Below, one piece after another: positions 172 to 63,840 of a stretch of DNA of 64,000 bases. The number at the start of each line of letters is the position of its first letter. Position 1 is the stretch's first letter. The notes under the pieces were generated by a model. It had not been told where the DNA came from. It was given only the letters and a program-made list of their open reading frames with translations, and searched no databases. The translations under genes were made by a program, and so were the position numbers. The DNA is from Antedon mediterranea (taxonomy: Eukaryota; Animalia; Echinodermata), in contig NC_092677.1 of NCBI RefSeq assembly GCF_964355755.1, positions 13,414,101 through 13,478,100 of the forward strand, given 5' to 3'.

Positions 172-225
172 ATGGTGCACATGGTAGCGGAAGTCGAAGT
201 GGTACAACGGCATCAAGCGAATCAG
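172..225 (+). CDS. Putative 54-nt phase-1 linker micro-exon of DED gene 0 (DGAHGSGSRSGTTASSES)
   Basis: ttcag| acceptor, G|gtgaat donor, length a multiple of 3, open in the phase-1 frame; paralogous to the exon at 1084-1272. Confidence 0.55.
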
Positions 226-1083
226 GTGAATATCATCATCTATATACAAATTAATTACATCTTTTGCGTAAACCTCAAAACCAAACACGTGCTTTTTACT
301 TTCTGGTCTTCGAAAACAATTCGATGCCTGACTCTGGTTGATCCAATATGGCCGATTAACCAGTAAAAAGAACATCGAGATAAATTTCCATTTGCTATAA
401 CGTAAACTGTCTCGTGTACAATTTTTTAAAAATGATTGATTACATCCTTCATACGGTACTTCGTTATTTACACGGGTAAGTCGATTTCTACTCCCCACCA
501 AAGTTTGCGGTAATTGTGCTAAAATTGATTTAATTCAATGCTTTTATTCTATAGGTTTCACAACTCAAAGCGAAGAAACAACACATATACCAGATTTGTT
601 TTTCTATTCAATTCGATTTTTACATTGTTTACATTAGGCCTATGTAGTTCTACAAATTACTATTAATTAATTAACAGTACAGTAATCAAATGCAATAACA
701 TCCAACATCCACTACGATTATCGAGGGCAATGCTTATTGGCTTTTTGTTTCTTTGCCTGAAATTGATTTAATTTAATGTTTACTTACCTGTAAAAATAAT
801 ACTTTTTATACCTGTTTTTTACTCTATTATACTAAGTTGGACTCACTTTTGGAAGCGGTACAGGTAAAGGTGCGCAAATAGCAACGTTTCCAACACAACA
901 ATGTAAGTTAACATGCTCTGAAAATTTAATTTTTAAACATTTATCAAAACCTGATTGAAGGGGATTCTTTTGGGAAGGAAATGTACATGGCCTTAAACGC
1001 CACCCCAAAAATGTACACTTAATTTATAGGAGCCTCTTTTAAAATAAACTTAATATTTTCTACTCATACACTAAAAAAAATAG

Positions 1084-1272
1084 GGCCTAACGAATATTAT
1101 TCTGATGACGACGACTCAGATCATGGTGATGGTGCATATGGTGGCGGAAGTCGAGGTGGCGGTGGTGGAAGTCGAGGTGGCGGAAGTCGAGGTGGTGGAA
1201 GTCGAGGTGGCGGAAGTCGAGGTGGCGGTGGTGGAAGTCGAGGTGGCGGACGCGGTGGTGGTCCAAAATCAG
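1084..1272 (+). CDS. Putative phase-1 linker exon encoding SRGG/RGG repeats (..DDDDSDHGDGAYGGGSRGGGGGSRGGGSRGGG..RGGGPKS)
   Basis: GGTGGCGGAAGTCGA-type repeats; donor TCAG|gtgaat at 1272. Acceptor is either tag| at 1083 (189 nt) or cag| at 1119 (153 nt); both preserve frame. Confidence 0.6.
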
Positions 1273-1857
1273 GTGAATATCATCTATTATAACTTTTGCG
1301 TAAATCTCAAAACCAAACACGTACTTTTCACATTCTGGTCTTCGAAAACAAGTTGATGCCTGACCCTGGTTGATCAAATATGGCCGATAAGTACAGTAAA
1401 AAAGTACACCGAGATAAATTTCTCTGTACAATTTAAAAAGATTGATTGATTATGACTATATTATTTCAATATTATTAATTAACTTAATGTCTGAATGTTA
1501 AGTGATCGTTAAACAATAAAGTTGAGCATTTCCCCACCGGATTCTATTATTCTACTATAATATTCAATTACTTAAGAATATTGGTAATTCTGATGATGAG
1601 AAATGGTTGTAAGCTCAAATTAAAGACTGTTTGGATTCTAATGTCCTGTATATTTAGAATTATATTCGACGATCACATCAAAACCCCTCACCACCCCACC
1701 CCTAATCTCCACTATTATCACACTCCTAATAACAAACAATTATAATCGGTTGAACAATTTCTACTTCATAGAACATATTTGATTTTGCAGGAATGAGCAA
1801 GGCCGTTGATTTCAATCTTCTAAAAACGATTGAACATCTTTTCTAATTTTTTTTCAG

Positions 1858-2345
1858 AAGTGAACGAGGATGATTTCAATCTCCTGAAAATGATTGTGTC
1901 AGAGTATTACGATGACAGGAATTGTCTCATTATGCTGAAGGTGTTGTTTAGAGACCATGTGCCTCAATTCAAATTACAAGAAATGAGATCTACAATAGAT
2001 ATGTTAAACGCGTTAGAGGACTCCGGTGATTTAAGTTCAAAAGACATCTCGATAATATACGACACAATCAACTTGACAAAACAATATGCCTTGAAAGATA
2101 AGATACAGAAAGAATTACCATTTCCCAATGTAAGTGGAATACCAATTACCAACTTCACAGAGTACAGACAGAAGATAATGAAACTTGGAATGGAGATAAA
2201 TAGAAGGGATATACATAGAAGTGATATGTATTCTAACAATCCATACAAGGGATACCAAAGTAGTTGGAGAATGATAGACGATTTAGACGACGGCAACATT
2301 CAAACATTGTTGAGTAAACTGAATATGCTGCATTATTGGAATTAA
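1858..2345 (+). CDS. Terminal exon type B (tandem DED-like pair) of DED gene 0; 5' exons lie partly outside the window
   Basis: tttttcag|AA GTG AAC GAG GAT GAT TTC; protein is a clear paralog of 24571-25106 and 48631-49160 (DDF.LLK.IVS.YYD, LNALE.S.DLSS.DISIIYDTINLT, YRQKIMK.G, SSW.MI.DL); short deletion near the C-terminus relative to the paralogs. Confidence 0.75.
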
Positions 2346-2930
2346 TAATTCAAGATTGGTGAGAATCATTTCCAACCAGTCATCTGTTAATGTCGATTCG
2401 TAACAAACATTACAGTCCTGTCTTACAACCAGAAACTATATAGTTGGTAGTATTACTGAATTACTGAATACTGTTGTATAGATTATGCTCATACATTTCT
2501 AGGTCCATGATTGATAAGTCGGCCTATTTTTAACATCTTTGTTCAGGAAGAAAATATCATGTTTGGTCTTATTTATAAATCATATAAAACCCGTTTTATT
2601 CTTCATGAAGTTTTAGTGATAGCTAGTAGTATTATTTTCGTATACAGTAGGCCTATACGTTGGCATTTCAAACAGTATTTTTAACTAAATGGTCGACATA
2701 TATGTTATGATTTTAATATTCATGTCAAGTGAATAAAAATGTTTCCACTTAAAAAATGTGTGTACACTGTATGCTTGGGAAGTTTGACTTAAGGCAGACG
2801 GTTGGAAGAAAATGGGTATCTTACCTCACCAAAATTTAAGTAAGATAGACAGTATACCATCATCATCCGTTACATGATTCGTCTTGGGTAGACATTGCGT
2901 ACGCTAATCGTTTCCATGACTCTCTTGAGA

Positions 2931-3063
2931 TTCAACTACCATCATTCCCAAAAGTAAAAAAGATCCCGATTTCTACATTTACACCATACAGACAAAACAT
3001 AATGAAATATGGAAGGGGCATAGGCGAACAAGATATAGCCTAACGAAGATTGATGGGTACTAT
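2931..3063 (+). pseudogene. Degenerate fragment of a type-B DED exon
   Basis: tcattcccaaaagta..tacagacaaaacataatgaaatatggaaggggcata..gaagattgatgggtactat aligns with about 24835-24955. Confidence 0.65.
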
Positions 3064-3433
3064 TTATTTTTTTATTATTATATTTATTTTATGGACGGCG
3101 TCCATTATAAAAGCTAAATATCACTGGGCTACTTTATGTTAAATAAAACAAAGTATGAACATTTAAATGAAGCAATGGTTCATTCAAATAAACATAGTAT
3201 TTTGATTCTTTTTTACATGGAAGTAAGTCTCAGTTTCGTCCTTATATAATCCTAAGTGATACTTAAGGAAAGTGAGTCTGGTAAATTGGTGTTTTTTCTG
3301 CTATAGTGAAACATATCGTACCATGTTTCCGCTTACAGATACGTCTATGTTCGTCTACTTTTCAATACAATAACAATACTAAATAGATCCATTCGCTGAT
3401 CCACAGCATTATCATTTTCAGTAGAATTTGCCA

Positions 3434-4741
3434 TCTATATATAAATTTACGTAAGGGCAAAATTCGGTAAATCGCGCCTTACTTCTAGAATGTTTACTCG
3501 ATGGTATATACAGTTGGTTCGTACTTTCGGTACTGATTTTAACCACCTGATGTAACCCTGTTTACTAATTAAATTGAGTTAGATAATTATTTATTGACGA
3601 TTAAAACGAATTTAGGTTCAACGATTTGCCCCAAATAGGGGTGTTTTCCGATCGTGGTATACACTGTCTAATGGATGTCTAACTTGAAAAATACCCGCAC
3701 ACGATAATACGAGGACGCTTCGCATTTTCCTATCTCCTCCTACGATAATTGTTTTTAATAGCTGTAAACCGGTTGAACTGCTCGAGTACAGCATCATAAT
3801 GTTGAAGACAGGCCGATTTTCTTTTAAAAATACTATTTTGATAGATTTAATTTACGTTTTTACAAATGTATTGATTTGCGATGAATGGAACATTCCAATC
3901 TCTCAGTCTGCCAGTTTGGTTTAACACAAGTAGGTAAATTTATGAGCCCTTGGAGAATAAACTTGCAATACTTTGACAATACAGTACTGCAAATACCTAT
4001 TAACCATTTTTGGTCGTCATTTGAATCGAACATTTCTTACTGTGAATACTGTTAGATGTTATATACAAACATTTCTTACTGTGAATACTGTTAGATGTAA
4101 AAAAATATATACAAATAAACTTTATTACTGTGACTGTGGGTAGGCTCTACTGTTGATATATAAACACGTAATATACAAATAAACTTTATTACTGACAGTT
4201 GCTTCTCAACGTTTGCATTAATTAATAATTACAAAAAATATAAACGTCGTAGTGGTGTATCGTTACATGTACTTTACTATTTCAATCGACTATGACAGTG
4301 ACAGTTTTAACAAAGTATTAAATCGCAAATGTCTTACTATATTTAGTCACCGTTAGTGGTATATTATTTATAGGCCTATAAAAAATGAAAACAATATTTC
4401 GTTACTGACGTGGATAAGAATATATTTAAAAATTGTTCCTCTTTGTACCTATCCTCTTTCCCATCCCTCAACCCTAATTGGGTTTCTTTAAATGAATAAA
4501 CAATTTGGACTCATTTTGTGGTAAGTTTTTCTTTCGGAAGTAATTCCCCGGGTGCTAATTTTGGTTGACTACATAAATCATTGTGTCTATTTATTCGTTT
4601 CTGTAAACGACAATGTATTATAGTCCTGCGGTACGTGCATTTGAAATCGCCAGATATTTTACCCTGAAATTACTGTGTATTCGAGAACCATCTGTGAGCA
4701 CGACCTAGATGGTACGCGAGCGAAGCGAGCGTACCATCTAG
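3434..4741 (+). mobile_element. Non-autonomous Helitron-like element, copy 1
   Basis: A|TC start at 3434 and CTAG|T end at 4741 (AT target, no TSD); 13-bp perfect stem ctagatggtacgc/gcgtaccatctag at 4705-4741; near-identical inverted copy at 31309-32662 confirms the boundaries. Confidence 0.85.
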
Positions 4742-5182: not shown

Positions 5183-5363
5183 TTGACCTAAAATACAATT
5201 CCTAAAAATAGATCCATCAATCGTAATTATGCATAACAAAGAAAAGACGTGATCACTCGTCGTTTCAGTGACCTGATCTCCGTACTGTGGCAGTTGTAGA
5301 GGGGGAAAGAAAGATTAAAACTAACCCTAGTTTTAATTTTCCTAACTAAAGGAAAGGTAAAAG
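5183..5363 (+). promoter_or_regulatory. Conserved promoter / non-coding first-exon module (putative exon 1 of DED gene 1)
   Basis: ttgacct..aattcctaaaaatagatccat..tatgcataacaaag..gtgacctgatc..tagagggg..aaaag|gtaag; homologous blocks at about 26700, 34612, 40777 and 58543. Confidence 0.65.
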
Positions 5364-6049
5364 GTAAGGATAGTTATTGCATAACATGTTTCAGATGGGT
5401 CCATACCAAAGGAATAATGGCGGATTATTTGATGTTTCAATTCAAAATAGGCTACAGAACATCGCTCATTCCGAACGCGACAAACATGCGAAATAACAAT
5501 ACTATAGGCCTCCTACAATAAAACTTTTATTATCCAAAATTCCAGGGAAATTAATTTCATAACCGTAGTCTTTATATGCATAGTTATCGTTCATCAATTA
5601 TTTACAGTATCGTATTAAATCGTAAGAAATTAGTACTCTACTAGCTAGTCTGTCTTTAATAAATTACACATATTACTATTAGAAAATACAACCTTCGATA
5701 GGCCTCTTATAGAATATGTGCATTCGGTTTGAGCGCCGTGAAGTTGGTTACTTATTCCTTATTCGACATTCGTCAATGGAAGTTGGTTCCTTATTCGACG
5801 TTCGACATTCGCTAGGCTAGGCCAAAATTTCGAAAATGATAATTTCCCAGCGGTAAATATGCCGTGCGCCACCAACCAATCTCCTGCTGGTACTTATTCC
5901 CTATTCGACATTCATTCGTGAAGTTGGTTCCTTATTCGACGTTCGCTAGGCCGCGGCCGACCGGCTGGCCCAAATTCGTACCAAAGTAGACCTAGTGTAG
6001 ATGTACCTATTTTATCACAGATTTACATTTTTTAGTTCCGATATTACGA

Positions 6050-9000
6050 CCATACCAACGCCTCGGGCCGGGTTCACAATAGTATAGATTGACGTAGTAT
6101 GGTCCTGGAATTCCAGAAATGTGCCACTTGCCCCGACCCAGATCGGGCAAGTACGTGTTTTAACGCAATTTCAAATGCGTATTTTTAGCAATAATTTACT
6201 AAGAATTAATAGCACCACTTTTAAAGTGGCCATATGACCACACCCCGACGCCTCGGGCCGGGTACACAATAATATAGATTGACGTAGTATGGTCCTGGCA
6301 TTCCAGAAATGTGCCACTCGCCCCGGCCCAGTGCGGGCAAGTACGGGTTTTAAAGCAATTTAAAATGCGTATTTTTAGTGTTATTTTACTAAGTATTAAT
6401 AGCACCACTTTTAAAGTGGCAATATGACCACACCCCGACGTCTCGGGCCGGCCGCCGGGTACACAATAGTATAGATTGACGTAGTATGGTCCTGGCTTTC
6501 CAGAAATGTGCCACTTGCCCCGGCCCAGTGCGGGCAAGTACGGATTTTAAAGCAATTTAAAATGCGTATTTTTGGCATTAATTTATTAAACACCACTTTT
6601 AAAGTGGCCATATGACCACACCCCGACGCATCGGGCCGGGTACACAATAGTATAGATTGACGTAGTATGGTCCTGGCATTCCAGAAATGTGCCACCTGCC
6701 CCGGCCCAGTGCGTGCAAGTACGTGTTTTAAAGCAATTTCAAATGCGTATTTTTAGCAAAAATTTACTAAGAATTAATAGCACCACTTTTAAAGTGGCCA
6801 TATGACCACACCCCGACGCCTCGGGTCGAGTTCACAATAGTATAGATTGATGTACAATGGTCCTGGCATTCCATAAATGTGCCACTTGCCCCGGCCCAGT
6901 GCGGGCAAGTACGTGTTTAAAAGCAATTTCAAATTCGTATTTTTAGCATTAATTTACTAAGAATTAATAGCACCACTTTTAAAGTGGCCATATGACCACA
7001 CCCCAACGCCTCGGGCCGGGAACACAATAGTATAGATTGACGTAGAATGGTCCTGGCATTCCAGAAATGTGCCACTTGCCCCGGCCCAGTGCGGGCAAGT
7101 ACGGATTTTAAAGCAATTTAAAATGCGTATTTTTAGCATTAATTTAGTAAACACCACTTTGAAAGTGGCCATATGACCACACCCCGACGCCTCGGGCCGG
7201 GTACACAATAGTATAGATTGACTTAGTATGGTCCTGGATTTCCAGAAATGTGCCACTTGCCCCGGCTCAGTGCGGGCAAGTACGTGTTTAAAAGCAATTT
7301 CAAATGCGTATTTTTAGCATTAATTTACTAAGAATTAATAGCACCACATTTAAAGTGGCCATATGACCACACCCCGACGCCTCGGGCCGGGAACACAATA
7401 GTATAGATTAACGTAGTATGGTCCTGGCATTCCAGAAATATGCCACTTGCCCCGGCCCAGTGCGGGCAAGTACGGATTTTAAAGCAATTTAAAATGCGTA
7501 TTTTTAGCATTAATTTAGTAAACACCACTTTTAAAGTGGCCATATGACCACACCCCGACGCCTCGGGCCGGGTACACAATAGTATAGATTGACGTAGTAT
7601 GGTCCTGGCTTTCCAGAAATGTGCCACTTGCCCCGGCCCAGTGCGGGAAAGTACGGATTTTAAAGCAATTTAAAATGCGTGTTTTTAGTGTTATTTTACT
7701 AAGTATTAATAGCACCACTTTTAAAGTGGCAATATGACCACACCCCGACGCCTCGGGCCGGATTCACAATAGTATGGATTGACGTAGAATGGTCCGGACA
7801 TTCCAGAAATGTGCCACTTGCCCCGGCCCAGTGCGGGCAAGTACGGGTTTTAAAGCAATTTAAAATGCGTATTTTTAGTGTTATTTTACTAAGTATTAAT
7901 AGCACCACTTTTAAAGTGGCAATATGACCGCACCCCGACGCCTCGGGCCGGGTACACAATAGTATAGATTGACGTAGTATGGTCCTGGCTTTCCAGAAAT
8001 GTGCCACTTGCCCCGGCCCAGGGCGAGTACGGATTTTAAAGCAATTTAAAATGCGTATTTTTGGCATTAATTTAGTAAACACCACTTTTAAAGTGGCCAT
8101 ATGACCACACCCCGACGCATCGGGCCGGGTACACAATAGTATAGATTGACGTAGTATGGTCCTGACATTCTAGAAATGTGCCACCTGCCCCGGCGGCCCA
8201 GTGCGTGCAAGTACGTGTTTTAAAGCAATTTCAAATGCGTATTTTTAGCAAAAATTTACTAAGAATTAATAGCACCACTTTTAAAGTGGCCATATGACCA
8301 CACCCCGACGCCTCGGGTCGGGTTCACAATAGTATAGATTGATGTAGAATGGTCCTGGCATTCCATAAATGTGCCACTTGCCCCGGCCCAGTGCGGGCAA
8401 GTAAGTGTTTAAAAGCAATTTCAAATGCGTATTTTTAGCATTAATTTACTAAGAATTAATAGCACCACATTTAAAGTGGCCATATGACCACACCCCGACA
8501 CCTCGGGCCGGGAACACAATAGTATAGATTGACGTAGTATGGTCCTGGCATTCCAGAAATATGCCACTTGCCCCGGCCCAGTGCGAGCAAGTACTGATTT
8601 TAAAGCAATTTAAAATGCGTATTTTTAGCATTAGTAAACACCACTTTTAAAGTGGCCATATGACCACACCCCGACGCCTCGGGCCGGGTACACAATAGTA
8701 TAGATTGACGTATTATGGTCCTGGCTTTCCAGAAATGTGCCACTTGCCCCGGCCCAGTGCGGGCAAGTACGTGTTTAAAAGCAATTTCAAATGCGTATTT
8801 TTAGCATTAATTTACTAAGAATTAATAGCACCACATTTAAAGTGGCCATATGACCACACCCCGACGCCTCGGGCCGGGAACACAATAGTATAGATTGACG
8901 TAGTATGGTCCTGGCATTCCAGAAATATGCCACTTGCCCCGGCCTAGTGCGGGCAAGTACGGATTTTAAAGCAATTTAAAATGCGTATTTTTAGCATTAA

Positions 9001-9312
9001 TTTAGTAAACACCACTTTTAAAGTGGCCATATGACCACACCCCGATGCCTCGGGCCGGGTACACAATAGTATAGATTGACGTAGTATGGTCCTGGCTTTC
9101 CAGAAATGTGCCACTTGCCCCGGCCCAGTGCGGGCAAGTACGGATTTTAAAGCAATTTAAAATGCGTATTTTTAGCATTAATTTAGTAAACACCACTTTT
9201 AAAGTGGCCATATGACCACACCCCGATGCCTCGGGCCGGGTACACAATAGTATAGATTGACGTAGTATGGTCCTGGCTTTCCAGAAATGTGCCACTTGCC
9301 CCGGCCCAGTGC
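6050..9312 (-). repeat. Minisatellite array, left arm (about 17-18 units of 181/190 bp)
   Basis: Recurring tttaaagtggccatatgaccacaccccgacgcctcgggccggg..ccagaaatgtgccacttgccccggcccagtgcgggcaagtac. Confidence 0.95.
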
Positions 9313-12300
9313 AAGTGGCATATTTCTGGAATGTCAGGACCATTCTACGTCAATCCATACTATTGTGAACCCGGCCCGAGGCGTCGGGGTGTGGTCATAT
9401 TGCCACTTTAAAAGTAGTGCTGTTAATACTTAGTAAAAAAACACTAAATATACGCATTTTAAATTGCTTTAAAACACGTACTTGTCCGCACTGGGCCGGG
9501 GCAAGTGGCACATTTCTGGAATGCCAGGACAATACTACGTCAATATATACTATTGTGTACCCGGCCCGAGGCGTCGGGGTGCGGTCATATGGCCACTTTA
9601 AAAGTGGTGTTTACTAAATTAATGCTAAAAATACGCATTTTAAATTGCTTTAAAACACGTACTTGCCCGCACTGGGCCGGGGCAAGTGGCATATTTCTGG
9701 AATGCCAGGACCATTCTACGTCAATCTATACTATCGTGAACCCGGCCCGAGGCGTCGGGGTGTGGTCATATGGCCACTTTAAAAGTGGTGCTATTAATTC
9801 TTAGTAATTATTGGTAAAAATACTCATTTGAAATTGCTTTAAAACACGTACTTGCCCGCACTGGGCCGTGGCAGGTGGCACATTTATGGCATGTCAGGAC
9901 CATTCTACATCAATCTATACTATTGTGAACCCGGCCCGAGGCGTCGGGGTGTGGTCATATTGCCATTTTAAAAGTGGTGCTATTAATACTTAGTAAAATA
10001 ACACTAAAAACACGCATTTTAAATTGCTTTAAAATCCGTACTTGCCCGCACTGGGCCGGGGCAAGTGGCACATTTCTGGAATGCCAGGACCATACTACGT
10101 CAATCTATACTATCGTGAACCCGACTCGAGGCGTCGGGGTGTGGTCATATGGCCACTTTAAAAGTGGTGTTTACTAAATTAATGCTAAAAATACGCATTT
10201 TACCCGCACTGGGCCGGGGCAAGTGGCACATTTCTGGAATGCCAGGACCATACTACGTCAACCTATACTATTGTGTACCCGGCCCGAGGCGTCGGAGTGT
10301 GGTCATATGGCCACTTTAAATGTGGTGCTTTTAATTATTCTTAGTAAATTAATGCTAAAAATACGCATTTGAAATTGCTTTTAAACACGTACTTTCCCGC
10401 AATGGGCTGGGGCAAGTGGCACATTTATGGAATGCCAGGACCATTCTACATCAATCTATACTATTGTGAACCCGACCCGAGGCGTCGGGGTGTGGTCATG
10501 GCCACTTTAAAACTGGTGTTTACTATATTAATGCTAAAAATACGCATTTTAAATTGCTTTAAAATCCGTACTTGCCCGCACTGGGCCGTTGCAAGTGGCA
10601 CATTTCTGGAAAGCCAGGACCATACTACGTCAATCTATAATATTGTGTATCCGGCCTGAGGCGTCGGGGTGTGGTCATATGGCCACTTTAAAAGTGGTGC
10701 TATTATAATACTTAGTTAAAATAACACTAAAAATACACATTTTAAATTGCTTTAAAACACGTACTTGCCCGCACTGGGCCGGGACAAGTGGCACATTTCT
10801 GGAATGCCAGGACCATACTACGTCAATCTATATTATCGTGAACCCGACCCGAAGCGTCGGTGTGTGGTCATATTATGGCCACTTTAAAAGTGGTGTTTAC
10901 TAAATTAATGCTAAAAATACGCATTTGAAATTGCTTTTAAACACGTACTTGCCCGCACTGGGCCGGGGCAAGTGGCACATTTCTGGAAAGCCAGGACCAT
11001 ACTGCGTCAATCTATACTATTGTGTACCCGGCCCGAGGCGTCGGGGTGTGGTCATATGGCCACTTTAAAAGTGGTGCTATTAATACTTAGTAAAATAACA
11101 CTAAAAATACGCATTTTAAATTGCTTTAAAACACGTACTTGCCCCCACTGGGCCGGGGCAAGTGGCACATTTCTAGAAAGTCTGGACCTTTCTACGTCAA
11201 TCCATACTATTGTGAACCCGGCCCGAGGCGTCGGGGTGTGGTCATATTGCCACTTTAAAAGTGGTGCTATTAATACTTAGTAAAATAACACTAAAAATAC
11301 GCATTTTAAATTGCTTTAAAATCCGTACTTGCCCGCACTGGGCCGGGGCAAGTGGCATATTTCGGGAATGCCAGGACCATACTACGTTAATCCATACTTG
11401 TGTTCCCGGCCCGAGGCGTCGGGGTGTGGTCATATGGCCACTTTAAATGTGGTGCTATTAATTCTTAGTAAATTAATGCTAAAAATACGCATTTGAAATT
11501 GATTTTAAACACGTACTTGCCCGCACTGGGCCGGGGCAAGTGGCACATTTCTGGAAAGCCAGGACCATACTAAGTCAATCTATACTATTGTGTACCCGGC
11601 CCGAGGCGTCGGGGTGTGGTCATATGGCCACTTTAAAAGTGGTGTTTACTAAATTAATGCTAAAAATACGCATTTTAAATTGCTTTAAAATCCGTACTTG
11701 CCCGCACTGGGCCGGGGCAAGTGGCACATTTCTGGAATGCCAGGACCATTCTACGTCAATCTATACTATTGTGTTCCCGGCCCGAGGCGTTGGGGTGTGG
11801 TCATATGGCCACTTTATAAGTGGTGCTATTAATTCTTAGTAAATAATGCTAAAAATACGCATTTGAAATTGCTTTTAAACACGTACTTGCCCGCACTGGG
11901 CCGGGGCAAGTGGCACATTTCTGGAAAGTCAGGACCATACTACGTCAATCTATACTATTGTGTACCCGGCCCGAGGCGTCGGGGTGTGGTCATATGGCCA
12001 CTTTAAAAGTGGTGTTTACTAAATTATTGCCAAAAATACGCATTTTAAATTGCTTTAAAATCCGTACTCGCCCGCACTGGGCCGGGGCAAGTGGCACATT
12101 TCTAGAAAGTCTGGACCTTTCTACGTCAATCTATATTATTGTGTACCCGGCCCGAGGCGTCGGGGTGTGGTCATATTGCCACTTTAAAAGTGGTGCTATT
12201 AATACTTAGTAAAATAACACTAAAAATACGCATTTTAAATTGCTTTAAAATCCGTACTTGCCCGCACTGGGCCGGGGCAAGTGGCATATTTCTGGAATGC

Positions 12301-41660: not shown

Positions 41661-41763
41661 GTACGTATTCAGTTTTAACAAAGTCTGACCTCATAACATA
41701 TTTTTACTGATTATAACTGTTTGTTCCCGTTCTTACTTTTTCAATTCTAATTTAATTTTACAG

Positions 41764-46915: not shown

Positions 46916-46950
<35 letters not shown>

Positions 46951-48630: not shown

Positions 48631-49160
48631 AAATGGACGAGGATGATTTCCAGCTTCTAAAAATGATTGTATCAGGCTATTACGATGCGATAAAAGATTG
48701 TTTCACTATGTTGATGGTGTTGTTTGGAGATTATGTACCTAAATCCAAACATAAATCAATTAAAAATACAATCAGTTTGTTAAACACGTTAGGTACTTCA
48801 AATGCTTTAAGTTCCGATGATATCTCTATAATATTTGATACAATCAACTTGACGGGGCACTATGCCTTAGAAAGGAAGATTCAGGAATCAATACCATTAT
48901 TTCCAAATGTAAGTGGAATAGAAATTAAACACATCTCAAGTAACAGACAGAAAATCATGTCATTTGGAATGGGTATGGGTGAATCAGATGTTTCAAAGAT
49001 AGATGGATTAAAAAACAATCCGCTCAAGAATTATGAAAGTAGTTGGAGCATGATATATGATTTAGAATGTAGAGAAATCATCAAGGTTAACGACAACCAA
49101 AAATTCATTGCAGATTTGACAAGACTGGGACTTTCTCGCCTTGCAGAAGTATTGAAATAA
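48631..49160 (+). CDS. DED gene 4 terminal exon type B (tandem DED-like pair)
   Basis: ttttacag|AA ATG GAC GAG GAT GAT TTC; paralog of 24571-25106. Confidence 0.8.
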
Positions 49161-50719: not shown

Positions 50720-52384
50720 AGTAAAAGCAAAAGTTGTAAAGGAAGTAAAATACAATATTTTAAAGCCGCTGACATATATTTTTAATTTATCACTTCAAAC
50801 TGGACTGATACCAGGGAAGTTGAAAATTTCGAAAGTAGTTCCTATACATAAAAAAGAGGACCGCCATTTGGCCTCAAACTATCGTCCCATATCGCTGTTG
50901 CCCATTTTTTCGAAAGTTTTTGAAAAGATTATCCATAATCAAGTATACAATTATCTTACAAAATTTAAAGTGTTAAGCAACAATCAATATGGATTTAGAA
51001 ACAAACACTCAACTTCTCATGCTATGATCGACTTGGTCCATAGAATATTAAATGCATTTGAAAAAAAGGAATATGCACTTACTACCTTTATGGATTTGTC
51101 AAAAGCGTTTGACATTATCGATCACAGTATTCTGTTGAGCAAATTGGCGCATTATGGTATAAGAGGCATCGTTTTAATGTGGTTTAGAAACTATTTAAGT
51201 GGCCGCAAACAATATGTTTATGCCAATAGTAGATCATCATGTTTAAAAGACACCAATATAGGGGTGCCACAGGGTTCTGTTTTAGGACCACTTTTGTTTT
51301 TAATTTACATCAATGATATTTAAGTCGAGCAAGTAGTAAAATAGATATAATTAGTTTTGCTGACGACACAACTTGTATAACAAGAAGAGATGACCCTACA
51401 ATGTTAAACCATACTATGAATATTGAACTAGAAAAAATAAACGTATGGCTTAAAGCAAATAAGCTGTTACTGAATGTCAGCAAAACTAATTACGTTGTTT
51501 TAAGAACTAACCAAAAGTACTTTGACAAAAACCAGTTTAAAATAAAAATGAATAATGTGTTATTACATAGAAAAGAAAATGTGACATTTCTAGGTGTAAT
51601 TTTAAACGAAAATCTTAACTGGAAACATCACATACAGCTTATTAGGAAAAAAATGTCTAGCCTAGGGCAATTGGTATACTTTTAAAAGTAAGAGAATTCT
51701 TTCCTCATAAAGTCCGTATTAGTCTTTATAACACCTTAGTATTACCTCACCTTCAGTATGGTAACTTAATATGGGGAAATACATACAAGAGCACGTTAGA
51801 AGTAATACTAAAACTCCAAAAGAGAGCTGTAAAATGCATTACCTTCTCTAAATCCAGACAAGCCGCAGAGCCACTGTTTAAGAAACTAAAAATATTAAAC
51901 GTTTATGATATTTACAAAGTAAACGTCATAGGATTTATGTACGTAAAATTCAATGAATTACCACATCACATTTTAAATATTTTTAATTACTGTGACAGTA
52001 TTAGGCCTACTCATAAGCTCAGAACAGAAACTGAATTCGAAATTCCCTTCACAAGACTAACTTGCAGTCAACAGTTTATACACAAATATGGACCAAAATT
52101 GTGGAAAGAATTCACTTGTAATGGTGGTAATAAACCGGTTATCTTAAAGAAACAAAATAAATGTATAAAAAAAACAGGTCAAAAAATACTTATTATCACT
52201 ATATGCTGATTAACAACACCTTTGTTTATTTAAGTTCTATATACTTGTTCTTATGTAAAAGGGTCCTACAAAAAAAACGAAGCTACAGCTTTTTTATGCA
52301 GGATCCCTGTTTTCAGTTGTACTGTAATTATGATGTACTGTAATTGATGACTAAATAAATGTGGAATAAATGAAATGAAATGAA
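50720..52384 (+). mobile_element. Degenerate 5'-truncated LINE (CR1/L2 group) reverse transcriptase
   Basis: NYRPISLLP.FSKVFEK, QYGFR, DLSKAFD, GVPQGSVLGPLLFLIYINDI, FADDT; stops and frameshifts; (AAATG)n tail. Confidence 0.9.
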
Positions 52385-52470: not shown

Positions 52471-52970
52471 CAGGGTGTCTCGAAAACAGAGACCTCGAAA
52501 ACAGAGACCAGAGACCCGAGACCCAGGGTCTCTGTTTTCGAGAAAATCTCGAAAACAGAGACCCACACTAAAACGTCTCAATATTACGTAATATAGGGGG
52601 TCTCTGTTTCGAGTTCTCGAAAACAGAGACCCCCACTAAAACGTCTCAATATTACATTATATAGGGGGTCTCTGTTTTCGAGTTTTTCCCAAAAACAGAG
52701 ATCCCCCACTAAAACGTCTCAATATTACGTAATATAGGGGGTCTCTGTTTTCGAGTTTTTCTCGAAAACAGAGACCCCACTAAAACTTCTCAATATTAAG
52801 TCAATATTACGTTATATAAGGGGTCTCTGTTTTCGAGAAAAACTCGAAAACAGAGACCCCCACTAAAACGTCTCAATATTACGTAATATAGGGGGTCTCT
52901 GTTTTCGAGTTCTCGAAAACAGAGACCCCACTAAAACGTCTCAATGTTACGTCAATATTACGTTATATAG
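52471..52970. repeat. Tandem array of about 65-85-bp self-complementary units
   Basis: cgaaaacagagacccc-actaaaacgtctcaatattacgtaatata-ggggtctctgttttcg repeated about 6 times. Confidence 0.9.
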
Positions 52971-55780
52971 GTGGTAAATTCCGGACACCCGAATAGAAAC
53001 GGACGCGTCCGAAGCGGGTTGGGGCGGTTGCTCCAACCAGAGTCACGTCTCCGGCGTTTGGAATGCCGAGGAGGCGTTAGCCCACATCAATCTCTTAGTA
53101 CTTTGGACAGTAGACCGAACGTTGAAAGCGCTACTTCCAAACATAACAAATTCACACGTCCATGTCTGCTCGGACAACACAACCGTGGTCGCGTACATCA
53201 ACCGACAAGAAGGCACAAAGTCTCCGACTCTTTGCTATCACACATGGACGCTCATACACTGGTGCATCGCGCACAGAATAACGCTGACTGCATCGCATAT
53301 TCCGGGCAGCCAGAATGTAGTCGCGGACACGCTGTCCCGACTCGCTTTACGCCCGACCGAATGGCGTCTGTTGCCGAGCATAGCCACTCAAATATTCGAC
53401 CACTTCGGACGGCCGCACATAGACCTGTTTGCAACGTCAGAGAACACGCAGCTCCCGACGTTCTGCAGTCGATTCCGGGATGCACGTGCGTGGGCGGTGG
53501 ATGCCCTGTCCATGTCATGGGACGGTTTATGGGCTTACGCGTTCCCGCCAATATCGATCATACCAATAGTTCTGACTCACATTCAGCGCTTCCGATGCCG
53601 AGTTCTGTTGATCGCACCCCGTTCTGGCCTCGTCAAGCGTGGTATCCGCTTCTTGCCAGTCTTCTTTACGATCACCCGCTGCGTCTTCCGGTCCGCGCGG
53701 ATCTACTGACGCAAAATCGTGCGAGGTTCTCGACGATCAATCTACAATCCCTGAACCTGACTGTTTGGCCATTGTCAGGGATCAGCTCAGAGACTCGGGA
53801 ATTTCGGACGGCCCAGCCGCCCTGGCGGCCAAATCTAGAAGAGATTCGACTCTCACCGTCTACAACAGCCGCCTACGACACTTCTTCCGCTGGTGCAGAC
53901 AAAAGAACATAGACCCTAAGGCGATATCCTTGGGTCAGATCTGCGCTTTTTTGCATTACCTGTACGAATCAGGCTTGCAAGTACGCACGGTGTCAGGCTA
54001 CCGGTCCGCGATTGCGGCCATTACTCCGCCATTCAAGGATGGCTCGACGGTGTCAACTTCCGCAGTAATCACGCATTTCTTACGCGGTATGTCCAGAGAG
54101 CGACCTCCGTCTAAGGTCTTAGTTCCACGTTGGGACGTCAACGTCGTTCTATCCGCACTCACGCGCCCGCCGTTCTATCCGCACTCACGCGCCCGCCGTT
54201 CGAGCCAATGAGCAAGGCTTCGTTATACAATCTTTCGCTTAAGACAGCGTTTCTGGTGGCGTTGTCCTCATGTAAACGCCGAGGCGAGCTGCACGCGCTC
54301 ACGCTAGAGCCAGGCCATATACGATTTGAGCGGGGCGGAGTCCGGTTGACATTCAGGAAGGACTTTCTGGCCAAGTCCCAGACGTTAAATTTCTCGCCGC
54401 CTGCTGTGTTCGTTCCATCAATGTCCGCATTTTTGGGGGTAGTAGAGGACAAATTCTGGTGCCCGGTAAGAGCACTCAAATTCTACATCCACCGTACAGA
54501 GACGTTGCGAGAGGGTATATCTCACTTATTCGTCACGTCGGTGCCCCCGTATCGGCCGGCCGCAAAATCCACGATTGCTAACTGGGTCGTGGCAGCGATT
54601 CGGGCCGCTTATGAGTCGTCCAGCACTTCGCCGCCGGTACATATGCATGAGGTGCGGGATGTTGCTACATCCTGGGCGTTGTACGCTGGTGTTTCTGTAT
54701 CAGACATTATGACAGCGGCATGGTGGCGGACACAGTCTACGTTTACTGCGCATTATTTAAAGGACATTTCTGCAACCATGGCGCCAGTAGCAGCAGCAGT
54801 GCTAAAGCCTAGGTTATAGGTACGTACCCCGGGGGGGGGGGGGTCACTTGTATATAAACCAAACGTGGGGGGGGGTTTTGCAGCAGCCACTTCAAGACAT
54901 GAGGCACTTGTGCTACCTGTTTTACTGAAAAATACTACGGACTTGAACTACCATTTACCAAATAAAAATCCAGTGTTCTCTAAAAAGACGGCAGAAACAA
55001 GGCCACGCCAGAGAGGGCGCAATATTTGTACTGGTTCCCGGCATGATCTGCGCATGGCCAAAGAGACCGTTCATGGCAAAATCATGAACGTGTTTTCGCT
55101 CGTCCGCGGTGCATGACGACGATGATCAAGAGTCAAGAGTGGTCACAGTTGAATGATTTTGTCGTAGGCTATGTTTCGTGTTCTTCTGCTGATGCGAAAA
55201 CTCTAGGCCTATTCAAAGGTGTTTAGCGATGGGCTTATAGCCGGGCTTATAGCATCCATTAGGCTAAAATACCTGCAAAATTTGGCGATAAATCGTGACA
55301 TTTTGACACGGGTGGGCGGGCCAGGCACTTAAACTACTAATTTCACCCTGTCATTTCCCACACTTGTGCTACCAACTCTCCATAATTTCCCACACTTGTG
55401 CTACCAGGCCCTCGAAAATATACCCGTAAATGCGGCACCTCCCCGTATGGAAATATTTAAGAGTGACCCCCCCGGGGTACGTACACTTCACTTGCTCTGC
55501 TCTTTGTTAAATTACTCCCACCGCCGACTAGTTCTAGTGCTAATCTGGCTATTGTCGGTTTATACAGGTAAGCTAGGCACGATATAGACTACACAAACCA
55601 GTAGTGGTGTTAGTAGTCTATGAGTGCTAGCTTACCTGTATAAACTCCCTCCCGCCGTCCCCGCAGTCAAGTGGGCGGAAAATGATGACGGTGGTATGTT
55701 GGTACGTTCCCACATGAGGGCGTGGTTGCGGACTGGTCCATTATAATACAGGGGTGTTCTAGGCATGAGCTATTCCTTTG
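52971..55780 (+). mobile_element. Degenerate DIRS1-like tyrosine-recombinase retrotransposon, 3' half (RNase H, methyltransferase-like domain, YR, 3' non-coding region)
   Basis: TDAS..GWG, SDNTTVVAYINRQ, HIPG..NVVAD.LSR (RNase H); IDLFAT, DAL..SW, YAFPP (MT-like); KTAFLVAL....R..EL, CPVRAL..Y, H.VR..ATSW, TF..HY (YR); 26-bp duplication at 54145-54196 frameshifts YR; 19-bp inverted repeat 55558-55576/55627-55645. The 3' boundary is approximate. Confidence 0.85.
54827..55477. mobile_element. Non-autonomous DNA element with CCCC(G)nTCACT TIRs inserted just after the DIRS YR frame
   Basis: ccccggg..gggtcact / agtgaccccccc-gggg with tacgta on both flanks (palindromic, so TSD length is ambiguous). 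Confidence 0.75.
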
Positions 55781-57713
55781 TCGCAGAATTGGAGTACCCA
55801 TAAAAGATTCTAAGACAGTCGCTCCTACGACGAATATCATCATTTACGGCAATGAAGTTGATTCAATCAACATGATATGTCGCTTGCCGGAGGCAAAAGT
55901 AACGAAAATAAAATCAATTCTAGATACATTTGTAACAAGGAAAAAAGTTACTTTAAGGGAACTACAATCGTTAATAGGGCTCTTGAGTTATGCTTGTTCA
56001 GTTGTCCTACCGGGTCGAACCTTTCTGCGAAGACTCATCAACCTCCTCTCCCTTGCAAAACACCCAAACCATTTCATTAGGATTAATTTAGAAGCGAAAC
56101 AGGATCTGTACATGTGGCTTACCTTTATTAAACATTTCAATGGCAAAGCCCTCATTCTTCCGGAAAAATGGATCACCTCGGATACGATCCGATTATTTAC
56201 CGACGCGGCGGGTTCAATCGGATGCGGGGCTATCTTAGGAAGTGGTTGGTTTGCGTTTCCTTGGCCGTGTTCATTTTTAGGCAGGTCCATAGCTGTACTT
56301 GAATTGTTTCAAATTGTGATTGCGTTGGAAACTTGGGCACCCAGGCTCGCGAATAAGAGGATCCTATTTCGGTCCGACAACCAAGCAGTTTGCGAAATAC
56401 TTAAAAAAAAAACCGCGAAAGACGCTACTCTCCTGCGGCTTTTGCGACGCTTGGTGCTTTGTTGCCTAAATCACAACATTCTGTTCGAAGCAAAACACAT
56501 TCCAGGCAAGGAAAATGTGTTGGCTGACCTACTGTCAAGGCTCCAAATCAACAAAGCATTGTCATTGGATAAGTCTCTTAGCGCTCATCCTACAGAAGTA
56601 CAGCATGAGCTGCTTCACATTTAAATGGTCTGGGATCATTATGCAGTACGAAAAGTTCAGCTTGGGCTGCTTCTAAGTACTCAGTCACGAACGATGAAGT
56701 CCAGCTTGGAGCTGCTTCAATAACTTACTTACGTTAAACAAGATTAATTTGGATAGTTTATTTTTCAGGCTTCTCCATAGACCCACAGCAAGGAGCAGCC
56801 AATCCCGCTCTGACACCGACAGCGGTCTCCTTAATCGAATCCTCCCTTGCACGTCCAGTCACCAAAAAGGCTTACAGACGTAGTCTGCAACTGTTGGCAT
56901 CCTGGTCAGGAAAACGAGTACCCTTACCACTTGATGTAGGTACAATTTGTAATTTCCTGTCTCATTTATTTGACAAAGGTTTGGCACCAGGAACAATTTC
57001 CTCACATTATTATGTCTGCAATCTCGTTCGTACACAAGTTAGTAGGCCTACCGGATCCTAGCGGGTTTTTCCTCGTTCAAAAAATTATCCGCGGAATTCA
57101 TTCTAGGGCGGCAAAAGTGAACTCTCGGCTTCCCATAACAAAAAGGATCTTGATTAGGCTACTCGATGCATTGCAGTTTATAGAACCATTACTACCCCAT
57201 CGTTTGTTACTTGAAGCATTATTTCTTACAGCGTTTCAGGATTTTTTTTCGGCTCGGAGAATTGGCATCAAAAGCCAAAGATTCGAACGTAGTAGAGCGC
57301 AACGATTTAACTCTGAACGAAACAGGGGCCTTAATCATAATACGACACCACAAAACTGGAGTTGGAAAAACCCCCGTTTCGGTATCATTTGCACCATGGG
57401 TTAGAGAAAAGTACTGCCCAGTGGCCGCACTAACAAACTACCTCGCACATTGCCAACAGTCCACAGGTCCCTTGTTTCAGCACCTTGATGGCAAGGCGGT
57501 TACACAACAATTTGTGGCGTGCCGGCTGAGAGTGGCAGTGTCGTTTATTGGGTTGAATCCGAGCCATTACAAGGGCCACAGTTTTCGTATTGGGGCAGCA
57601 ACACATGCTGCGTCATTAGGCAAGGCATGTCAGATAGCCTCATTCAACAATTTGGGAGATGGAAATCTTCTGTTTTCAAGAAATACATTCGTATTTCATC
57701 GTTCAGTTCGTAA
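55780..57713 (+). mobile_element. Second, distinct degenerate tyrosine-recombinase retroelement (Ngaro/PAT-like: RT C-terminus, RNase H, YR, no MT seen)
   Basis: LQSLIGLL.YAC.V..GR.FLRR, FTDAAG..GCG, SDNQAV, HIPGKENVLADLLSR; YR motifs CPVAAL..Y, HSFRIGAAT, GRWKS..F..YIR across frameshifts. Confidence 0.8.
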
Positions 57714-58542
57714 GGGTCAGGTCCGTGGTTTTTGTTTGGTCTGGGTGGGAACCCATCCAAGGCTGGGTTTTTGGCGCCGACACCCAGACTCATGTCTTAT
57801 CTTTCAGCCAATTTCATATTTTATTGTATTTTAATCAGACTCAAGTAGATTTATAGATGTATATATTTGATGCTTAAGTCAAATTTGTTAACCTAATATT
57901 AAGTACTGTTTAGTAAGTAAGAGTTTAATACTTTGATTTATACTTTGTTTAAATATTCTGATTACTGATATCCGTTATGCAGTATTTTATTTATGGTTTC
58001 AGATGACATAACGTATAAGGCGTAACCCCTTTTTATATTATGTAATATAATTAGGCCTAAGTGATATGTCATCTATGTTTTACCAATATACACGTTTTAA
58101 TATTCGTCATTTTAATAAATGACATTTCCATCCAATGATGGTTTATCTGTGTTTGTTTGTTGTCCTGTCCGGTCGCTAGCGTAACACAAATTAATTTCTT
58201 CATAAGAGAGATTTTTGTTGATCCAATAGTACGAAATACAAATATAAACTGTTTTACAATCTGGTAAATAAGTCACCTCGGTAACCAAGAACAAAAGTCT
58301 ACATGAAATAGCAAACTGAATGTTTGCAAAACGTCAACAGTACTTTGTATTTCGTACTTTCGATTTACTGGATAGACAACAATTGAGTTGGTGTCAGTTT
58401 ATTTTGAAACAGTAGCATACATTATTGTCGTGTTAAAGTGCTATATAAAAATATAAATACTCTTTCTCCCCTGAAATTTATTCGAATGTTGACGCCTAAC
58501 ACAAGTATATTTGTTTGGCCTTATTAGAAATTGTAGTATGAT

Positions 58543-59473: not shown

Positions 59474-60008
59474 ATGATGGTTGATACTGATGATAAGTTT
59501 AGAGACTTTTGCCAAAAAATCAGTAATGCCTATCCTGGGAATAAAACAAAGGAGTTAAGATTTCTTTTACATGATCCGTACCTACCAAATGGTGTATTGG
59601 CAGGGGAAGGTTATTCGGGAATGTACTTATTTAATGAGCTCAAAAGTAGAGGCAAAATCGCATACAATGATGTTAACCTTGTATCAGAAATTGCAGATGT
59701 AACAGAAAATGAATGTGCCAAAACTATTGTAATGAAATACAAACAAGAAATCCAGTGTAATGCTAGGTCTATTTCGAGTTTGTCTTTATATCGTAAAACA
59801 CTTTATAAAGCTATGGGTGTAATCACAGAAAATAAGGGGGGTGATTTACACAAATTAATTGACTATTACGGATTGAATCATCAAGAATTTACAAATAAGT
59901 GGGATTTAGTATTTTATTTAGAGACAGAACTCAAATTAGAAAACACAACAGAGAAATTGAACAGGTTTGCTGAACAGTTGAATGGAGGTGCAAAAGTCAT
60001 ATTGCTAG
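59474..60008 (+). CDS. DED gene 5 exon type A (tandem DED-like pair)
   Basis: ttacag|taacATG; donor CTA G|gtacgt; intact paralog of the other A exons. Confidence 0.85.
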
Positions 60009-60362: not shown

Positions 60363-60404
60363 GACAAAGCGCTGTTGATAATAGTGGAGCAAGACCTGCT
60401 ATAG
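60363..60404 (+). CDS. DED gene 5 linker micro-exon 1 (GQSAVDNSGARPAI)
   Basis: tacag|GA..ATA G|gttggt; 42 nt, phase 1-1. Confidence 0.65.
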   Translation, partial: DKALLIIVEQDLL

Positions 60405-60821: not shown

Positions 60822-63483
60822 ATTGGTTTGATAATGAAATTAAACAAGCAATTACAGAACGAAGAGAAGCTGCTAGGACGCATAGAAAATACGTCAAATT
60901 AAACCCTAATAATGACCACACAGATATTCTATGGCAATCCTACAAAGAAAAACGTGTTAATGTAAAATAACTGATTTCAAGAAAAATTACTGAATCTAAA
61001 GTAAACAAATCTATTAAAATTGCTAAAAAAAGGAGGACCCTCCTCTAGAGATTTTTGGGAAATTCTTAAAGGGTCTAATGACAGTAAATGTAAATCTGGT
61101 ATTAATTGTGTTAAACTTTCACAAGACCGTAATGAAACTACATGTGATAAAAAAAATTCTAACTATTGTTAAACATTATTGGACAAGTTCATGATTGTTT
61201 CTCATACTTGACAAAATGGGCAGTTAGTGAAATGCACTCTATAAATGACATTAGCAATGATGAGAATATACTCTCTAATATTACAGATAAATAATTACAG
61301 AAGCACTATCAAATGCCAAAAATAATAAAGCCCCAGGTATAGATGGTATAACGAATGAACTCCTTAAAAACGGAGGTATAGCGCTAGAAACATCCCTCCT
61401 TGTCTTATTCAACAAAATTGTTGAATTAGAAAAGATACCGAGTGGAATGTAAGCATTATTGTTCCCATCTTTAAAAGGGGGGATCGTAAAGATTTAAATA
61501 ATTATAAATGAATTTCACTGACTTCTTGTGTGTCAAAAATTTTTAACAGAGTAATCACTATGTACGTATCTAATTTTATAGAAAAAGATAACTTTCTTTC
61601 GGAAGTTCAGGGAGGCTTCAGATCTGACCACAGATGTGAAGATCACATCTTCACTCTTAAAAAATATATTGTGTTGCCGATCAAATGTAGGCAAAACTAC
61701 ACATCTAGCCTTCCTGGACTTCCGTAAAGCTTTTGATAGTGTTTGGCGAGATGGCCTTTTAAAATCTGCATGGGACGCAGGTATAAGAGGGAAAGTTTGG
61801 AGACTTATTAGCTCTCTTTATAATGATGTTAAAGGCAAAGTTAGAATAGGAGAAAGTATGACAGATGAATTTAATATTTATAAAGGTGTAAAACAATGGT
61901 GTGTGCTCTCACCAATTTTATTCTCAATTTTTATAAATGAATTTGTAAAACTTCTTCGTGATAGTAATTTATGGAATGGTATCTGGATGGGTGGCATTTT
62001 CTGGGCTGATGATGTTATTCTATTAGCTAATGATGAAAAGGAAATGACAAAAATGTTAGAAATCGCAGATAGATTTGCTAATGAATGGAAATTGGGATTT
62101 AATCATGACAAGTCCAATGTTATGGTTGTTAGTAAACGCATAAATAAAAATAAAAATTGGAAATTGGGGGAAAAGACAATTAAAGAGGTAAATAGCTACA
62201 AATACTTGGGTGTTTATATCACATCAAATTTAAGAGATCACACACATTATGAACATGTCAAACAGAAAGGAAACTGATTAATAGCTTACATTAAGGGTAT
62301 TATATCTAATCTTGATAATTTTAACAGAGTGTATTATGGTAATATACTTTAGAAGTCAATTGCACTTCCATCAATAAATTATGCAAGTAGTGTTTGGTAT
62401 AATAGATCAATCTAAGATAATGAAGACTTAGAAAAGCTTCAACTACAAATGGCACGTTATTTATTAAAGGCTCCACGATATACACCCCGTGAAGCCCTTT
62501 ATGGTGATCTTGGTTGGGTCCCTTTGTCCCAACTACATGAAATGTCGAGAACAAAGCTGTTTAACCGATTTATAAATGGACAATAGTAGGTGGCCAAAGA
62601 TTGCCTTAGATTGTATGGTACAAACTGATTGTAACTTTAATAACCTAAAATATAAATTCTTAAGTAATTGTGTTGATACAATTAACAAATGTACAAATGA
62701 TGTGAACTCATATGATATATTTAATGTTAATAATCTGTCTTTTTCACACCTTTTTCAGGTAAGAATACTGAACAGGCCTTATCAGAATCATATAAATCAG
62801 AGTGGTCAAACAATTTATTACAAAAAACTTCCTTAAACATTTATTCTAAATTAAAACCTGAACCAAAATGAGAAAAATATCTTCTTGACAAAATAAATTT
62901 TTATGGTGCTAGCTTAAAGTTTAAGGCTAGATCAAACACTTTACAACTTGATTGTAAAACATGTAAGTGGTCAAATGAAACCACAGGTGTTTGCACACTA
63001 TGTGAAATCGGTGAATTTGAAGATATTAAACATTTTATTTTGAACTGTAAGGCTTTTGACAACATTAGAAAAGAAGAATTAAGAAACCTAGAACATGATT
63101 TGACCCTCTGTAATGATTATGATTTATGGACATTATTTGTAAATGCAAATGATGAAAACAAATTAAGTTTTATATTAGGGGGAGAGTCTGTTCCTTTTTT
63201 CTAATAAATCATATAACTCATTTGATAAATTTTGTAAAAAATATTTAAGTTCTGCATGGGAGAAACGATCCTCTTTAAAGTACTCCCAATGATTAATTTA
63301 TTGTATTGTTACTTGTAAATACTGTAGTTTCTAGTTAATTTTGTTTTTTTTGCTTAGTTATAGTTTGGTTATTCATCTTTTTATTTTTCTATAATGTTCT
63401 GCTTTGTTTGCTGGACCGAACCGCATATTGTGAGTGCCACTGATACAAAGGTGTTATGGTCAACAAATAAATAAATAAATAAT
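60822..63483 (+). mobile_element. Degenerate 5'-truncated LINE (CR1/L2-group RT) inside an intron of gene 5
   Basis: KAPGIDGITNELLKNGG, QGGFR...RC.DHIFTL, FLDFRKAFDSVWR, GVKQ.CVLSP.LF, WADD, YKYLG, C-terminal C..C......HF...C; (AAAT)n tail. Confidence 0.88.
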
Positions 63484-63571
63484 ACTGAAAATAAAATTAC
63501 ATAATAAAAATAGTAGTATTTATATGTTTACTCGAATTTAATATGCTTGCTATTTTACGAATTTAATATAG

Positions 63572-63673
63572 CTGAACAGCAAGGTACTGGTGGTGCCACT
63601 GGTGGAGGAGAAGGCTCTTCATCAACAACAACTAGGCCTATAACAAAGACAACGACGAAAACAACAACATCAC
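63572..63673 (+). CDS. DED gene 5 linker exon 2, Gly/Thr-rich (AEQQGTGGATGGGEGSSSTTTRPITKTTTKTTTS)
   Basis: tatag|CT..TCA C|gtaagt; 102 nt, phase 1-1. Confidence 0.7.
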
Positions 63674-63795
63674 GTAAGTAGTAGGCTTATTTATTGAAAA
63701 TATTTATTAGTACTTGTACTTGTTTGTATACCAACACACTATAATGTATGTGCTATTAAACTAAATATTAGAATAACATGTGATTATGTTTATAG

Positions 63796-63840
63796 GTGAT
63801 CATCCGAGAGAAAGTACACCATTGGCTCCATTAAATAAAG
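63796..63840 (+). CDS. DED gene 5 linker micro-exon 3 (RDHPRESTPLAPLNK)
   Basis: tatag|GT..AAA G|gtataa; 45 nt; PL.PLN motif shared with gene 3 exon 42124-42183. Confidence 0.7.

Follow-up and report, generated by a model that had tools for sequence, protein, structure and literature searches.

The death effector domain (DED) family of mammals comprises seven members with one or two DEDs each, as set out in sections of PMC4558505. Among invertebrates, DED-NACHT proteins occur in amphioxus, sea urchin, and Nematostella (passages of PMC2575513), DED-bearing RIG-I-like receptors (RLRs) are on record (passages of PMC8662601), and expansions of death-fold proteins with possible ASC-like adaptors have been described (passages of PMC3879445); lineage-specific shuffling of death folds is already a known theme. 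Here we analyze a gene cluster in a 64,000-nucleotide stretch of the genome of the crinoid Antedon mediterranea, a feather star of the Antedonidae (hereinafter, the window; assembly GCF_964355755.1, contig NC_092677.1, forward-strand positions 13,414,101 to 13,478,100). Its intact genes encode four DEDs, arranged as two tandem DED modules per chain with a flexible linker between them, and no enzyme. This layout is apparently undescribed so far: full-text searches, several of them noisy and not extending to supplementary tables, retrieved no literature on four-DED or crinoid DED proteins, and the accessible part of PMC11508797 contains no DED passage.

The modules of these proteins share with the prodomains of caspase-8, caspase-10, and cFLIP the full DED1-DED2 order and packing, whereas the proteins themselves carry two modules per chain and no caspase or pseudo-caspase domain, and the modules have lost the residue corresponding to F122 of caspase-8, have Trp in the position of L140, and almost never contain an RxDL motif. 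Like cFLIP-S and the viral FLIPs (MC159 and KSHV vFLIP), the cluster proteins are DED-only and have no enzymatic domain; however, the former consist of one tandem DED with a short tail, and the latter combine two tandem DEDs from different clades and come from a multigene cluster. As in ASC and FADD, there are two unlike modules and a flexible linker, and one of the modules is akin to those of sensors. Unlike in ASC and FADD, both halves are tandem DEDs rather than single domains of different death-fold classes, the genes are multicopy and unstable, and bridging is a prediction. The DED-NACHT and DED-RLR receptors of amphioxus, sea urchin, Nematostella, and Patiria, to the extent covered in the passages of PMC2575513, PMC8662601, and PMC3879445, exemplify the same kind of lineage-specific shuffling of death folds onto sensors. 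In crinoids, by contrast, what has been shuffled is an entire tandem DED, which is found in arrays of up to five, occurs on Roc-COR, Rel, kinase, TIR, and ubiquitin proteins as well, and also makes up module-only genes.

The window contains six co-oriented paralogous units, U1 to U6, all on the plus strand, as had been proposed in the original prediction, made from the sequence alone. The units have in common an A-type N-terminal exon (57 to 60% identity among U2, U3, and U6), which is followed by one to three small linker exons and a terminal exon of one of two types, B in U1, U2, and U5 and C in U3 and U4. All introns of the modelled units are of the GT-AG type and in phase 1. In U2, an A-type exon (23365 to 23890, DED1 and DED2), an 18-aa flexible linker exon (24282 to 24335), and a B-type exon (24571 to 25106, DED3 and DED4) splice into an open reading frame (ORF) of 371 aa without internal stops, which is identical to RefSeq XP_071958425/6 in 371 of 371 residues. 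The A-type exon (36220 to 36745), two linker exons (36894 to 36944 and 37274 to 37327), and C-type terminal exon (37678 to 38228) of U3 yield a 393-aa ORF, again without internal stops. Both ORFs had been foreseen at canonical splice sites; the 393-aa protein is absent from the output of three protein searches, and U3 rests on the gene model and on the sequencing run X1, discussed below. The in-window part of U1 corresponds to residues 171 to 434 of XP_071957997 and consists of three linker exons (172 to 225, 837 to 902, and 1084 to 1272, matching XP_071957997 and XP_071958000) and a terminal B-type exon (1858 to 2345) with a short deletion in the last DED; the exon for its first module is located before the start of the window. 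The third linker exon of U1 is Gly/Arg-rich, an acidic stretch followed by Gly-Gly-Ser-Arg repeats; it is of low complexity and unlike the other linkers. The non-coding first exons can only be inferred, at 5194 to 5363 for U2, together with its promoter (based on homology to 26746 to 26921 and 40944 to 40997 and on a donor motif), and at 34767 to 34821 for U3, to which a loose end of X1 at 36197 is similar. The same contig encodes a near-identical paralog of U2 (P0001, XP_071958531; 350 of 371 residues). All the RefSeq genes named in the cluster are labelled “uncharacterized.”

The predicted four-DED layout holds for U1, U2, and U3, and the other three units are damaged or incomplete. The A-type exon of U4 (41119 to 41660) carries a frameshift near 41462 and then an in-frame stop, which RefSeq XP_071959448 bridges by skipping 41422 to 41506; it is followed by linker exons at 41764 to 41814 (in RefSeq possibly ending at 41802), 42124 to 42183, and 42866 to 42919 and by a C-type exon with a tail (43565 to 44220). 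In U5, the A-type exon (47310 to 47760) begins after helix 1, so that the start codon and the first helix are missing, and five local searches did not find the missing 5' piece upstream; the predicted linker exons (47973 to 48017, 48250 to 48309, and 48421 to 48489) and the B-type terminal exon (48631 to 49160) follow, the latter in an open frame. U6 consists of an A-type exon (59474 to 60008), identical to the respective part of the database protein P0031, and linker exons at 60363 to 60404 (absent from the database model), 63572 to 63673, and 63796 to 63840. It accounts for residues 2 to 227 of this 230-aa, one-module protein, which ends three residues later, the next downstream exon falling outside the window. 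Beyond the six units, there are three remnants of B-type exons, at 2918 to 3063 (detected by tblastn and blastn), 33431 to 33593, and 39194 to 39275, and an orphan copy of the promoter and first exon at 26700 to 26907, which appears to belong to the same lost unit as the 3' remnant at 33431. These relics point to turnover of the cluster. An artefact of chance ORFs was rejected as an explanation of the cluster.

In the predicted models, each module, whether of the A, B, or C type, is a true DED1-DED2 unit packed as one, and it is for this reason that an intact gene is counted as encoding four DEDs. The AlphaFold2 model of the U2 protein has a mean predicted local distance difference test (pLDDT) score of 89.8, with values under 50 for linker residues 182 to 191, and the model of the A module scores 94.7. 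In a fold comparison (VIA search of the predicted models against 48,161 solved chains), the modelled B module matched the tandem DED of caspase-8 over 165 residues (Z 16.7; root mean square deviation [rmsd], 2.5 Å) and the modelled A module did so over 157 residues (Z 14.8; rmsd, 2.8 Å), with DED proteins filling at least the nine top rows in both searches. The FADD DED aligned to the predicted models over 87 residues (Z 12.3 to 12.7; rmsd, 1.7), structures of the cFLIP-S and viral FLIP type gave Z scores of 11.4 to 14.0, and the best pyrin domain gave Z scores of 9.8 to 10.3. An Atlas model of the C-type module of U4 matched the caspase-10 tandem DED with a template modeling (TM) score of 0.79 over 164 residues. 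For neither model did Foldseek find a match at E ≤ 0.001 (best E values, 0.013 and 0.0024), the top rows again being all DED proteins.

Sequence profiles lead to the same assignment. The Pfam DED profile (PF01335) matched 10 of 10 exon ORFs, mostly in their first halves, with E values from 1.3e-7 to 0.026, all below the curated cut-off of 35.9 bits; this cut-off is exceeded by the whole U2 (43.5) and U1 (46.4) proteins. Coverage by the Pfam and PDB sequence profiles is limited to DED1 and the start of DED2. The profile of the second half of the family module matched DED2 of fish caspase-8 with an HH probability of 89%, as against 7.5% for DED1, and the DED1 and DED2 profiles of the family did not match each other (3.6%). 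The identity of the modules to the tandem DEDs of caspase-8 and cFLIP is 12 to 19%. The stop codons come after the second module, with no C-terminal caspase or pseudo-caspase domain, and 13 effector queries found no caspase or other effector domain in the window (best E, 0.12). Both the tandem arrangement of the four DEDs and the absence of a caspase had been part of the original prediction.

The evidence of transcription comes from one study and consists of assembled contigs only. Five sequencing runs cover the U3 region; none is recorded as RNA, and X1 is presumed to be. All three predicted joints of U3 appear as GT-AG skips in X1 (3/3) and none in the DNA run X2, and X1 depth is zero in 7 of 30 bins of the region, upstream and intronic. 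A single X1 contig spans the last acceptor, passes the stop codon, and reaches 38871, so that the 3' untranslated region extends at least that far, and no X1 contig shows onward splicing to a further domain. U3 is therefore expressed as one transcript joining the A and C exons, as had been proposed. The possibilities that the A and B/C exons are separate genes and that splicing continues to an enzyme were both rejected for this unit, for which none of the outcomes that would speak against the prediction (absence of a death fold being the third) was seen. For U2, an X1 contig begins at the B acceptor, where it is preceded by 51 unaligned letters (approximately the length of a linker exon), and extends beyond the stop to 25237; the wide read alignment, swamped by repeats, gave no usable joints. 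Another X1 contig, over the first exon of U2, has 14 differences and may derive from the paralog P0001. A low-depth X1 contig lies over the disrupted U4 exon (41265 to 41662) with 198 unaligned letters, roughly what the linker exons measure, and splicing of U4 may therefore persist.

Nine window modules were combined into a profile, which matched 393 of 1.84 billion proteins at E ≤ 0.001, in agreement with the predicted expansion of an invertebrate family. The best 150 matches were listed, and all 18 nameable proteins among them come from Antedon or from Anneissia japonica; one of the protein searches also gave weak matches to six caspase-domain proteins, the five named ones from fish. Among the 118 scanned proteins of this set (the remaining 32 were short), a Pfam partner domain was found in 68: NACHT in 24, Roc/COR in 15, TIR in 5, kinase in 4, NHL in 3, leucine-rich repeats (LRRs) only in 3, and caspase, ubiquitin, and MAM domains in 2 each, as well as a RIG-I helicase, Rel, USP, very large GTPase, fibrinogen, ENTH, NB-ARC/TPR, and ankyrin domains in one protein each. 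Two or more modules are present in 42 of the best 150, and 20 of these, including six- and eight-DED proteins, have no Pfam partner. The four-DED layout is found in two crinoid families and on three Antedon chromosomes. The module occupies a single phase-1 exon, a likely reason for its shuffling. Some of the resulting combinations are peculiar. P0003 (XP_071959549) and P0038 contain a tandem DED, a hydrophobic stretch resembling a membrane anchor, an FN3-like domain, and NACHT, with no clear LRRs, an unusual version of the NOD-like receptor (NLR) layout. A RIG-I-like helicase (P0083/P0163, Anneissia DDX58-like) and a Rel-domain protein are each headed by a tandem DED. A NACHT-LRR protein contains ten DEDs in five modules, and a caspase carries two unlike modules (the last three proteins being P0087, P0015, and P0041).

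In an IQ-TREE phylogeny of 67 rows, picked from 212, the A modules of the window form a clade (100/100) with the N-terminal modules of the NACHT proteins P0003 and P0038, which are encoded on the same 28.6-Mb Antedon contig as the cluster. The C modules of U3 and U4 group (100/100) with the C-terminal module of the COR protein P0008, whose cluster mate is an ankyrin-Roc-COR protein. The B modules fall together with a further four-DED protein and the ENTH fusion (100/98), within a 14-row clade (99/94) that includes the caspase P0134, a COR protein, and a NACHT protein. The window A modules alone are supported at 54/19, and C3 and C4 alone have an AU (approximately unbiased) test P value of 0.29, values compatible with either direction of module transfer. 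The two modules of a chain are 21 to 30% identical and come from separate clades, and the window modules share about 60% identity with NACHT- and Roc-COR-borne ones. An origin of the pair by duplication of one module within the gene was rejected (single clade of all window modules, AU P = 7e-87). Modules at most 30% identical are paired in 15 of 18 module-only two-module proteins, compared to 1 of 9 two-module NACHT proteins (Fisher P = 0.0006). Among the window paralogs, the ratio of nonsynonymous to synonymous substitution rates (dN/dS) is 0.39 to 0.77, with the upper 95% limit below 1 in 12 of 14 pairs, which indicates purifying selection, and pairs involving the U4 pseudogene give values similar to the others. 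The family had been predicted to be fast-evolving; its evolution is moderately fast but constrained, and positive selection at the whole-exon level was rejected, dN/dS exceeding 1 in no pair.

The surface that drives chain growth in caspase-8, F122/L123 (sections of PMC3477315), is remodelled in this family. With fish caspase-8 used as a bridge to the human numbering of DED2, Phe occupied the F122 position in 3 of 200 database modules, where Gly was the commonest residue (66 modules), and the 11 examined modules of the window genes had no Phe there. The loss is family-wide, since all 3 caspase-borne modules are also without F122. The L140 position is occupied by Trp in 194 of 200 modules. RxDL, the DED motif described in sections of PMC4558505, was present in the helix-6 windows of 3 of 209 modules, and the E/D-RxDL charge triad was not recovered. 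In DED1, the FL-type motif is kept: 163 of 200 modules have F, V, or L in the F24 position and L in the L25 position, with F-L in most A modules. The Y8 position of caspase-8 was dropped as evidence, Tyr being absent there in fish caspase-8 too.

Several mobile elements and repeats reside in the window. A 17.2-kb element at 5732 to 22952, which we take to be of the foldback type, lies within the inferred first intron of U2; it has terminal inverted repeats of ~310 bp, a 9-bp target-site duplication, and a 190-bp unit in two opposite-facing arrays of 17.5 and 71 copies. Broken ORFs with RNase H-like and integrase SAM-domain matches at 52971 to 57834 are likely two remnants of tyrosine-recombinase retrotransposons, presumably of the DIRS type, and are preceded by a palindromic tandem repeat of 68 to 82 bp (52526 to 52975). 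Reverse transcriptase ORFs of the long interspersed nuclear element (LINE) type are found at 50721 to 52209 and, inside a U6 intron, at 61582 to 62277 (both matching Pfam RVT_1), as well as at 29219 to 30175 (no Pfam match). A 1.3-kb high-copy repeat is present twice in opposite orientations with 91% identity (3432 to 4705 and 31315 to 32664).

With slightly less than even confidence, we favor the view that the intact genes encode heterotypic adaptors of a crinoid tandem-DED network. The proposal builds on the rule that death folds associate with folds of the same kind. Through like-binds-like assembly, the A module would attach to clustered A-type modules of NACHT proteins in the activated state, after which the B or C module would bring in effectors by way of the B/C-type modules that Roc-COR, caspase, kinase, TIR, or Rel proteins carry. 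The surfaces involved would be others than the F122 patch of caspase-8, and the outcome would be an ASC- or FADD-like bridge made solely of tandem DEDs. The cluster itself turns over by duplication and decay. Adaptors analogous to ASC have been proposed for invertebrate NLRs (passages of PMC3879445).

Several points weigh against such an adaptor role. The kinship of modules does not demonstrate binding specificity, and without F122 the chain surface that is known best is gone. The 30% identity threshold was set post hoc, the comparison involves non-independent paralogs, and the profile used for searching was derived from the same module types; module-only database proteins may in part be truncated gene models. 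Both caspase-bearing proteins lack a species assignment, as do the Rel and kinase carriers. Further, ASC and FADD are conserved single genes, and a cluster that is decaying (damage or missing parts in 3 of 6 units; dN/dS near 0.5) is more in keeping with dispensable regulators than with core adaptors.

The main rival, which we consider possible if on balance unlikely, is that the cluster encodes decoy inhibitors, i.e., partial copies of the docking modules of sensors and effectors that would co-assemble with crinoid tandem-DED complexes and stop them in the manner of cFLIP-S or viral FLIPs, each chain having two targets. The original prediction left adaptor and decoy side by side, and both are plausible: an unstable, young birth-and-death cluster without a catalytic domain, whose modules are this close to those of NACHT and Roc-COR proteins, fits a decoy as well as an adaptor. 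FL-mutant caspase-8 limits chain growth (same sections of PMC3477315), and the cluster modules lack F122; however, so do the caspase-borne modules, and its loss is therefore no mark of a decoy. Besides, a decoy would need no more than a single module, yet pairs of unlike modules have arisen repeatedly, in several independent combinations.

It is improbable that the four-DED genes are near-neutral by-products of exon shuffling, most of them with little function, that arise where phase-1 module exons often land together. The damaged units, the three exon remnants, and the similar dN/dS of pairs with the U4 pseudogene are compatible with this explanation, but the upper limits of dN/dS, the spliced RNA of U3, and the presence of the layout in two families and on three chromosomes are not what it would lead one to expect. 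About as hard to maintain, and rated slightly lower, is the role originally predicted, that of cross-linking or capping canonical caspase-8/FADD filaments. The fold is the same, the L123 position is mostly hydrophobic (153 of 209 modules), and caspase-8 F122G/L123G still forms short filaments with FADD via type II/III surfaces (sections of PMC11074299). Against this stand the low identity to caspase-8 and cFLIP, the loss of F122 and RxDL, and the existence of much closer relatives on crinoid sensors. Judging by the scarcity of Phe in the F122 position, binding to canonical caspase-8 filaments is doubtful, and NACHT and Roc-COR proteins would be likelier partners, since the nearest relatives of the window modules sit on them. 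Least probable is a bait function, in which free modules would mimic those of NACHT proteins, be attacked by pathogen inhibitors, and be guarded by sensors: the cluster is diversifying and its NACHT-borne near kin are encoded on the same chromosome-length contig, but dN/dS exceeds 1 in no pair and no pathogen factor is known.

A broader extension of the adaptor reading, which we put forward only tentatively and hold to be rather unlikely as a whole, is that a single remodelled tandem-DED module, the size of one exon and with several specificity classes, became the basis on which crinoids rebuilt much of their death and innate-immune signalling, being carried by NLR-like, Roc-COR, RIG-I, Rel, kinase, TIR, and caspase proteins. 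The four-DED genes would then be combinatorial class-to-class connectors that assemble without the F122 chain surface. In any case, the two-module proteins and the hundreds of diverged modules without F122, even on caspases, would make it possible to test directly which surfaces are required for the assembly of tandem DEDs, and the same set would test what encodes the binding specificity of paralogous death folds. If the adaptor reading is true, an echinoderm class wires its sensors to effectors by a docking unit whose use in vertebrates is confined to the caspase-8 pathway.

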